A stretch of DNA of 64,000 nt, taken from Escherichia phage 235Ecol030PP. This document shows positions 1-1,323 of this stretch, piece after piece (positions within the stretch are counted from its first letter, which is position 1; each line of letters starts with the position of its first letter). The notes beneath the pieces are model-generated. The model was not told the DNA's origin and did no database searches. It saw only the letters and a program-made list of their open reading frames with translations. The stretch is from sequence record PP355091.1. One strand, 5' to 3'. The translations under genes and the position numbers were made by a program.

Positions 1-550
1 CGTAAGCGTACTGGACATTAGCGTCTTTAAACGTACCTTTAGAGGTATCTATTTCTGCCTTAAAGCCGCCTTTAGCCATAGCATCGGCAAATTCTTTACG
101 GAAAGCCATTGCATCAAGACCTTTCCATGATGATTTATGCTTGGCAAATTCAAGACCAGCGTAGTTGACAGCCTTAGCTAATTTATTATCAATAACCCAT
201 TTACCGGCTTTAGGCACAAACTTCGGGCCTTTTTGTTTAGAGAACAGTTTTAAATTCCAGCGACGAAGGTCACTGTCGGCTTTAACAAAAGCTGCGTCTA
301 AGTTACTAGCAACAACATCTTCAATATGAGCAAATTTAAGTCCGTCAACTTCAATATTTAGATCGTTACGCCAGCGAAGTCCTTCCCAAGCGAAGGCTTT
401 AAAGTCGGAAGCCTTTGTAGCTAAGTACCGTTCAATAGGAGCTGTTTTAGGGTCAAAGCCGTTTCCCGATCGGTAGGTCCACTCATCTTTATTAATGCCT
501 TTGGCCTTTACTATAGAAGCTTCGGCAATAAATTCTTGATAGGTTTTCAT
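1..550 (-). CDS. ipIII: internal head protein, IPIII-like, with capsid-targeting sequence; 3' end lies beyond window start
   Basis: ATG at 550-548; N-terminus reads MKTYQEFIAEA, the T4 internal-protein CTS with a gp21-type I-x-E site; ORF open to position 1. Confidence 0.6.
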   Translation of the reverse strand, partial: MKTYQEFIAEASIVKAKGINKDEWTYRSGNGFDPKTAPIERYLATKASDFKAFAWEGLRWRNDLNIEVDGLKFAHIEDVVASNLDAAFVKADSDLRRWNLKLFSKQKGPKFVPKAGKWVIDNKLAKAVNYAGLEFAKHKSSWKGLDAMAFRKEFADAMAKGGFKAEIDTSKGTFKDANVQYAY

Positions 551-611
551 GTGTTTCCTTGTTTGTTTTGATAGAGTAATTATACCATATTAATACTTAA
601 GCGTAAACCGT

Positions 612-872
612 TTAAGCTTTACCGCCAGAAATAATTCCGAAGTTGTTAAAATCATATCCAATATCGTCAACATCTACTTTAGGACTTGCTACAACATAAG
701 CAATTTCACTACATTTTGCACAGGTGTTGATTTCTTTACCATCGCCACCTAAGAAAGAATACCCATTACGTTTTAATGAGCCAAAGTCTTCCGCATCATC
801 AATGAAAGCTTTAACTTTAAATTTAGAACCTTTGGCATCTGCTTCAACGATAAATTCTTGATACATTTTCAT
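612..872 (-). CDS. internal protein, IPII-like, CTS-bearing
   Basis: 86 aa; N-terminus MKMYQEFIVEA; AAGGA RBS before ATG at 872. Confidence 0.6.
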   Translation of the reverse strand: MKMYQEFIVEADAKGSKFKVKAFIDDAEDFGSLKRNGYSFLGGDGKEINTCAKCSEIAYVVASPKVDVDDIGYDFNNFGIISGGKA

Positions 873-985
873 TTTTCCTTAGTAAATTGATTTACCAAAG
901 TATTTGTACCAAGTCGGACGTTGATCAATTTTTTCATCTAAGCGTGCTTGATTTATCGCAATGGACGCTTCGGACGGGTCATAAT

Positions 986-1040
986 TTCCTCCAAGTAGTT
1001 GATGAATGTATAGTATCAAAACCCTTGGAGGAAGTAAACA
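986..1040 (-). promoter_or_regulatory. early sigma70-type promoter with stem-loop (PeSL-like cassette), copy 1
   Basis: minus strand GTTTAC (fwd 1034-1039), 18-nt spacer, TACTAT (fwd 1010-1015); 10-bp inverted repeat TTCCTCCAAG/CTTGGAGGAA (fwd 986-995 and 1024-1033). Confidence 0.5.
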
Positions 1041-1041
1041 A

Positions 1042-1323
1042 CTATTTTTCTGAAGCGCCTGAAATATATTTTTCAAGACGTTGTTTCATCAGCGAGCCGT
1101 TCTTAGCGATTTCTTCCGGTTTATCGCACATACGCAACAAGGCTTCAAGCTTAACGATATCACTGGTGCGCTCAAATTTGCGAGTATCTATCTTACTAGC
1201 AAGTTCAGAAATACGTGCTAATAGACTTTCAGCTTCAACCAAAGCTGCACCTAGCTTAGTTGCAAATGTGTCAGTAGCTTCGTTAAGAATAGATTCTGAT
1301 AAAAATTCACTATATGTTTTCAT
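1042..1323 (-). CDS. CTS-bearing internal-protein-like gene, no T4 counterpart recognised
   Basis: ATG at 1323 overlaps lysozyme stop (ATGA); N-terminus [16 protein letters not shown] with L-x-E motifs; track ORF upstream part starts at TTG. Confidence 0.55.

Follow-up and report, generated by a model that had tools for sequence, protein, structure and literature searches.

Downstream of the lysozyme gene e in Escherichia phage 235Ecol030PP lie three genes whose products begin like the internal proteins (Ips) of phage T4, and the question raised by this locus is whether these proteins travel into the host with the phage DNA and, if so, what they act on there. The DNA analyzed is a stretch of 64,000 nucleotides (sequence record PP355091.1), referred to here at its full length as the window. 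An earlier note on it had listed three open reading frames (ORFs), at 1-550, 612-872, and 1042-1323, all of which are present at these coordinates on the minus strand, and had described them as flanking the lysozyme gene. They do not: e occupies 1320-1808, with the three ORFs all on its downstream side. In this Tequatrovirus, the e-proximal array of Ip cassettes consists of an Ip5-family gene, an unnumbered "internal head protein" gene, and ipIII. As for the whole, we lean toward an explanation in which the encoded Ips would be packaged, cleaved, and injected, and in which the two proteins that T4 lacks would each block a specific host nuclease.

The features of the locus are as follows:

1..550, minus strand: 5' part of ipIII (Ip3); 183 of about 193 codons, with the last ~10 codons and the stop codon beyond the window edge
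579..607, minus strand: sigma-70-like promoter upstream of ipIII; TTTACG, 17-nt spacer, TATAAT, and TG extension, from a consensus match only
612..872, minus strand: Ip gene of an unnumbered family, 86 amino acids (aa); predicted gp21 cleavage after I8-V-E10
873..1041, minus strand: what a deletion has left of denV (endonuclease V), namely, its start codon and last ~36 codons; from BLASTN against UFV13 and translations
1042..1323, minus strand: Ip gene of the Ip5 family, 93 aa; ATG overlapping the e stop codon (ATGA)
1320..1808, minus strand: gene e (T4 lysozyme), 162 aa; from the ORF list, comparison with T4 e, and the G8 annotation
1822..1842, minus strand: upstream of e, two copies of the T4 late-promoter motif TATAAATA; from an exact motif scan

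More than 800 T4-like phage genomes match the first 2.4 kb of the window, the best of them (Escherichia phages BF15, vB_Eco-B1.1, G8, and G4498 and Shigella phage Phaginator) in one piece at about 98% identity, and because of these matches the window is assigned to a Tequatrovirus genome. Every gene in the first 12 kb is on the minus strand, and in the direction of transcription the order is nudE, e, the 93-aa ORF, the denV remnant, the 86-aa ORF, and ipIII. As with ipII and ipIII of T4, the Ip genes here adjoin e and share the same leader, whereas the order in T4 is e, ipIII, ipII, and denV.

Two of the three ORFs could be placed in families with names. By sequence, ORF 1-550 is IPIII, with 94.5% identity to the T4 protein over 183 aa (the C-terminal ~10 residues being outside the window) and a match to phrog_5341, "internal virion protein" (E value of 3.7e-113). 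The 93-aa ORF, which starts from a TTG at 1338 in the mechanical ORF list and from the ATG equivalent to 1323 in the annotation of relatives, encodes a protein that matches phrog_3499, "internal head protein" (E value of 1.2e-46). In tblastn comparisons this protein is 89% identical to the product of a VR20 gene annotated as ip5 ("similar to bacteriophage T6 Ip5") and 48 to 51% identical over 84 aa to Ip5 of RB51 and T2 (E value of ~2e-17). Ip5 is annotated in RB51, T2, and VR20, and the 93-aa protein has the EIAKNGS-MK-RLE motif and invariant Cys of the family; on these similarities, it is an Ip5 family member. The name Ip5, used for the proteins of T2, T6, and RB51, reportedly comes from Repoila et al. 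1994. Placement differs within the family, with the gene at the ipI locus upstream of 57B in RB51 and T2 and directly after e here and in VR20 and mobillu. Across 132 public phage records, identity to the 93-aa protein is 99% or higher (100% in most among the matches listed).

The 86-aa protein matches phrog_2667, "internal head protein" (E value of 1.5e-17), which is also its RefSeq name, and its family is present in 217 phage records spanning Tequatrovirus, Mosigvirus, Gaprivervirus, and Gelderlandvirus. No Ip number for this family was found in the literature searched, which did not extend to the original numbering paper (Repoila et al. 1994). Neither a function nor a target was met in that literature for this family or for any member of the Ip5 family. 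Pairwise Nei-Gojobori ratios of nonsynonymous to synonymous substitution rates (dN/dS) were 0.08 to 0.21 for the 86-aa gene (versus the VR20, mobillu, and STP4-a orthologues) and 0.04 to 0.14 for the Ip5-like gene (versus VR20 and mobillu, with dS up to 1.8). Both genes are therefore under purifying selection across genera.

Where the earlier note had counted one ORF without a T4 counterpart, there are two, the 86-aa and 93-aa ORFs. In BLASTP comparisons with T4 IPI, IPII, and IPIII, 7 to 23 residues of these two proteins aligned, in the leader region, and profile-profile alignment with hhalign joined only 10 to 13 leader columns. Their mature regions had no homology to IPI_T4 (PF11634) or IPII. 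Both belong to families already recognized in public annotation as internal head proteins. Pfam, NCBIfam, and PADLOC gave no match for the 86-aa or 93-aa protein or for a 111-aa protein encoded elsewhere in the window (see below); sequence searches of the PDB, with single sequences and profiles, gave nothing significant (best E value of 0.019, to an unrelated protein), and word-indexed homologue searches returned close T4-like relatives only.

The three genes share a leader, the capsid-targeting sequence (CTS). The N-terminal residues are MKTYQEFIAEA in ORF 1-550 and MKMYQEFIVEA in ORF 612-872, and Y4, F7, I/L8, and E10 are common to all three. Experiments on IPIII have shown that its first 10 residues are enough to direct a protein to the capsid, with targeting dependent on positions 4 and 7 and processing on positions 8 and 10; gp21 cleaves after L/I-x-E (review of Black's work, PMC9026906). 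The signature in the earlier note did identify a CTS at the start of all three ORFs, with one position too many; the correct motif is EF(I/L)-x-E. A loose CTS pattern applied to the six-frame translation of the 64 kb had four matches, all at the starts of minus-strand ORFs, compared with means of 0.03 in 200 mononucleotide shuffles and 0.01 in 200 codon-block shuffles (maximum of 1). At the DNA level, a repeat finder detected a family of 32-nt direct repeats at the three 5' ends (519-550, 841-872, and 1292-1323), with copies 84% and 72% identical to the reference copy.

Distant relatives of the 86-aa protein provide a further view of the leader. A family profile search of 1.84 billion representative proteins had 12 matches, seven of which were the query family, fragments, or a fusion, and three of which were long repeat proteins that appear to be chance matches. 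Five distant relatives have CTS-like N termini (MKTYNEFIAEA, MQTFHEFLVEN, MKSFDQYIMES, MKTFQEFINEA, and MKTYAEFLAEA) and mature parts with 27 to 38% identity and a conserved K-N-G-Y-x-F core. Because the leader is kept while the mature parts diverge, there is good evidence that it is functional. Two metagenomic proteins also touch this family. P0012 is a deletion fusion of denV and the 86-aa gene in which the denV N terminus is followed by the C-terminal 24 residues of the Ip. P0020 (194 aa) has two modules, the first resembling the 86-aa protein and the second matching a hypothetical protein of JS98 and Klebsiella phages; they meet near a VELTE|S site that could be an internal gp21 cleavage site.

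Sites of the L/I-x-E type are I-A-E10 in IPIII, I-V-E10 in the 86-aa protein, and both L-S-E10 and L-N-E15 in the 93-aa protein, and cleavage at them is predicted. In the Ip5 family alignment E15 is invariant, whereas VR20 has another residue in place of E10 and RB51 lacks the L/I at position 8; on this pattern, the Ip5-like propeptide is probably 15 residues, cut at L13-N-E15, which would leave a mature protein of 78 aa with near-neutral charge. The predicted mature 86-aa product has 76 aa, a mass of 8.0 kDa, and an isoelectric point (pI) of 4.9. IPI/IPI* (PF11634) resembles it in its mature length of 76 aa, its gp21-removed N-terminal propeptide (predicted here), and its place in a variable Ip locus; IPI differs in that its leader has 19 residues and its mature protein is basic.

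An AlphaFold2 model of the 86-aa protein reached a predicted local distance difference test (pLDDT) score of 78.7 and a predicted template modeling (pTM) score of 0.67 with a 9-sequence alignment; with a 5-sequence alignment the pLDDT was only 46. In the model, a leader helix is followed by a compact beta-alpha-beta-alpha-beta-alpha-beta two-layer sandwich. The best Foldseek match in the PDB had an E value of 0.36, IPI* was not among the matches, and matches in BFVD were family members only (Shigella phage JK42 and Morganella phage MP1). The predicted structure would be a generic small alpha/beta fold without a functional lead.

The machinery for processing such proteins (gp21, gp22, and gp67) is encoded in the same window, as are two further Ip-type genes:

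5809..6144, minus strand: fourth CTS-like ORF, 111 aa, starting MKSYTQFLNEAVLNEA; pattern match, phrog_2280
6185..6192, minus strand: late-promoter motif TATAAATA, preceding the 111-aa ORF by 41 nt
9800..10084, minus strand: ipI orthologue (GmrS/GmrD inhibitor family); PF11634 IPI_T4, E value of 3.5e-51; second Ip locus, upstream of 57B
38382-38627: gp67; PF17634 match
39052..39690, plus strand: gene 21, prohead serine protease removing CTSs; PF03420 Peptidase_S77, E value of 1.5e-111
39721..40530, plus strand: gene 22, scaffolding core protein recruiting CTS-bearing proteins; PF25623 T4_CASP, E value of 5.2e-90

The Ip inventory of the phage in the 64-kb window thus comprises IPI, IPIII, the Ip5-like protein, the 86-aa family member, and a frameshifted CTS-like ORF (5809-6144); no gene for IPII was present in the window.

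Comparison with relatives shows how changeable the locus is. The gene orders downstream of e are as follows:

T4: ipIII, ipII, denV
RB51: denV, Ip4 (Ip5 being at the ipI locus)
VR20: ip5, denV, ip10, 86-aa homologue, ip7
STP4-a: CTS gene, denV, CTS gene, 86-aa homologue, ipIII
UFV13: ip5-like, denV, frameshift-split 86-aa gene, extra 104-aa CTS gene, ipIII

Unrelated CTS genes are thus arrayed at this locus in relatives and are gained and lost there, as expected for arms-race cargo. Shuffling of an "IP palette" has been discussed since 1994 (PMC4122927), and this turnover and the leader-coding repeat with which each gene begins fit that idea. The extra CTS gene of UFV13, between the 86-aa gene and ipIII, begins MKTYKEFIAESAGQRVEGGY.

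Between the two non-T4 genes lies the denV remnant. Relative to UFV13, 297 bp of denV are missing, and the surviving ATG at 982 opens a 9-codon out-of-frame ORF; relatives with intact denV at the same position exist. The scar is common to BF15, B1.1, Phaginator, G8, and G4498, judging from their single-piece alignments, and G8 has no denV annotation. From this deletion, the phage presumably lacks the T4 UV-repair glycosylase. A 65-aa ORF at 879-1076 was rejected as a gene, being the denV C terminus out of context.

What Ips of this kind do has become clearer than the earlier note allowed, which treated IPI* as the one characterized case. IPI* inhibits GmrS/GmrD (PMC3012670), T4 needs IPIII, which acts in the cytoplasm without its leader, to infect ECOR17 (PMC9391042), and Ip1, Ip2, and Ip3 each inhibit one distinct GmrSD type IV enzyme with no cross-protection (Silas et al. 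2025, PMC12373910), the targets of Ip2 and Ip3 being GmrSD from ECOR21 and ECOR17. According to the same study, at least 10 Ips have been reported since Repoila et al. 1994, and all accessory proteins of the two Ip loci likely target different GmrSD variants (PMC12373910). The antidefense proposal for the present genes is reasonable by analogy and coincides with the published, current working hypothesis of the field.

Applied to this phage, the mechanism would run as follows. Each Ip precursor would be made late in infection and recruited into the gp22 scaffolding core by its N-terminal CTS of ~10 residues. Cleavage by gp21 after L/I-x-E would occur at E10 in the 86-aa protein and IPIII and probably at E15 in the Ip5-like protein, and the mature Ip would stay in the DNA-filled head until injected with the DNA. 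By analogy with Ip1, Ip2, and Ip3, the likeliest role of each of the two non-T4 proteins would be to bind a particular host first-response nuclease and so block it. The Dar proteins of phage P1, which are large, unrelated to these Ips, and incorporated by another pathway, act against type I restriction. They offer a parallel in outline in that the Dar proteins (DarA, DarB, Hdf, and others) are reported to be head packaged, injected, and active against restriction before phage gene expression (PMC12810830).

Several observations weigh against this explanation. Outside the leader, neither of the two non-T4 proteins resembles IPI*, IPII, or IPIII in sequence, and the model of the 86-aa protein resembles none of them in fold. 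The mature 86-aa protein is acidic (pI of 4.9), while the T4 Ips and the IPI and IPIII of the window have pI values of 9.0 to 9.7. The 86-aa gene is frameshifted into two short ORFs in UFV13 (2440-2692) and Lutter (65087-65342), and it is therefore dispensable on their hosts. Virion proteomics for either family was not found in the literature searched, the fPS-2 paper included. Finally, BrxU, an enzyme of the GmrSD family, is reported to restrict Durham phage BGP (PMC13390438), and the BGP locus (910-1170 and 1650-1931) encodes an identical Ip5-like protein and an 86-aa protein that is ~90% identical, so at least the BrxU variant is not blocked by them. The BGP annotation starts the 86-aa gene at an internal Met and so omits its first two codons.

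The dissimilarity to the three known GmrSD inhibitors, the acidity of the 86-aa protein, and the restriction of BGP by BrxU would all suit injected proteins directed at something other than GmrSD, whether another early-acting defense or, in the manner of Alt, host takeover; T4 packages Alt, a nonrestriction effector that modifies RNA polymerase, by the same route (PMC9026906). We consider such a target unlikely. Ip1, Ip2, and Ip3 are mutually unrelated and strictly subtype specific (PMC12373910), and for that reason the GmrSD hypothesis also leads one to expect both dissimilarity and sensitivity to BrxU; the sensitivity of BGP fits the narrow specificity of Ip1 to Ip3. Nor did any antidefense or defense profile match the two proteins. 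It is similarly doubtful that either of two departures from what is known holds, namely, that the mature 86-aa product or the Ip5-like protein is an injected non-GmrSD inhibitor or that the ORF at 5809-6144 represents an unrecognized Ip family at a third locus.

Structural cargo, associated with the core or the DNA, helping heads to assemble or DNA to condense and lacking a specific host target, would account for the abundance of T4 Ips (~300 copies of each per head), for their basic character and DNA binding at low salt, and for the increase in polyheads when IPIII is lost (PMC9026906). Charge neutralization is nonetheless a poor fit to an acidic mature 86-aa protein and a near-neutral Ip5-like protein, and genes that are present, absent, or broken among close relatives are unexpected for a structural requirement, making a mainly structural role of the non-T4 pair quite improbable. 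Decay of one or both ORFs, with the leader retained but no functional protein made, might be suggested by the neighboring denV scar, the split 86-aa gene of UFV13 and Lutter, and the frameshifted ORF at 5809-6144. Such decay is very hard to reconcile with two ORFs that are intact in this phage, dN/dS values of 0.04 to 0.21 across Tequatrovirus, Mosigvirus, Gaprivervirus, and Gelderlandvirus, the near-identity of the 93-aa protein in its 132 records, and a confident compact fold model for the 86-aa family (pLDDT of 78.7). The explanation by packaged and injected inhibitors of specific nucleases remains the one we lean toward.

The fourth CTS-like ORF, at 5809-6144, is placed after a hairpin, and its leader, which has two L-N-E sites, is 42% identical to the Ip5-like protein over the first 31 residues. 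Comparison with RB51 shows that a 1-nt deletion in an A run has shifted its frame, making it an allele of the gene for the 157-aa RB32ORF132c/RB51ORF140 protein. It occurs in 511 phage records and is "hypothetical" or unnamed in 40 of 40 among the matches listed. From its leader and late promoter, it may belong to an unrecognized internal-protein family at a third locus.

Late-promoter motifs were found for part of the e-proximal array. Lutter has an annotated 8-nt promoter at the same place as the late motifs before e, and, given the ATGA coupling, the late promoters of e probably also drive the Ip5-like gene. No exact late-promoter motif of their own was found for the 86-aa gene or ipIII; a sigma-70-like site that matches 10 of 12 consensus positions precedes ipIII, and a promoter is annotated at the corresponding position in Lutter. 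Expression of the 86-aa gene and ipIII may depend on this site or on readthrough. At the ATGA junction itself, the lysozyme ends in TGTWKAYI rather than the TGTWDAYKNL of T4 (162 versus 164 aa; window 1320-1345). Because the lysozyme differs exactly where the Ip5-like gene abuts it, this suggests that insertion of the cassette remodeled the 3' end of e.

Between the e-proximal array and the ipI locus, a tRNA cluster (6899-8256) contains eight tRNA genes, and ARAGORN calls a tRNA-Met (CAT) where T4 annotates a tRNA-Ile. A 221-aa ORF within it (6978-7643, minus strand) takes the place where T4 has the GIY-YIG homing endonuclease gene segB; its N terminus, MFHYIYKITNKINNKIYIGAHS, looks GIY-YIG-like, as judged from the N-terminal sequence alone.

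Public annotation already covers the Ip gene class and both non-T4 families, the antidefense hypothesis is likewise in the literature, and the locus is ordinary for a T-even phage. The window therefore offers no new principle; what it provides is a concrete Ip inventory for one phage, from which two widespread and conserved families stand out, both amenable to direct screens against GmrSD panels. Because each Ip disarms one restriction variant, the Ip gene set probably decides which wild E. coli strains a T-even phage can infect after adsorption, with a bearing on host-range prediction and on the design of phage therapy cocktails. Were either of the two proteins instead to inhibit a defense system other than GmrSD, the reach of Ip cargo would no longer be confined to type IV restriction.

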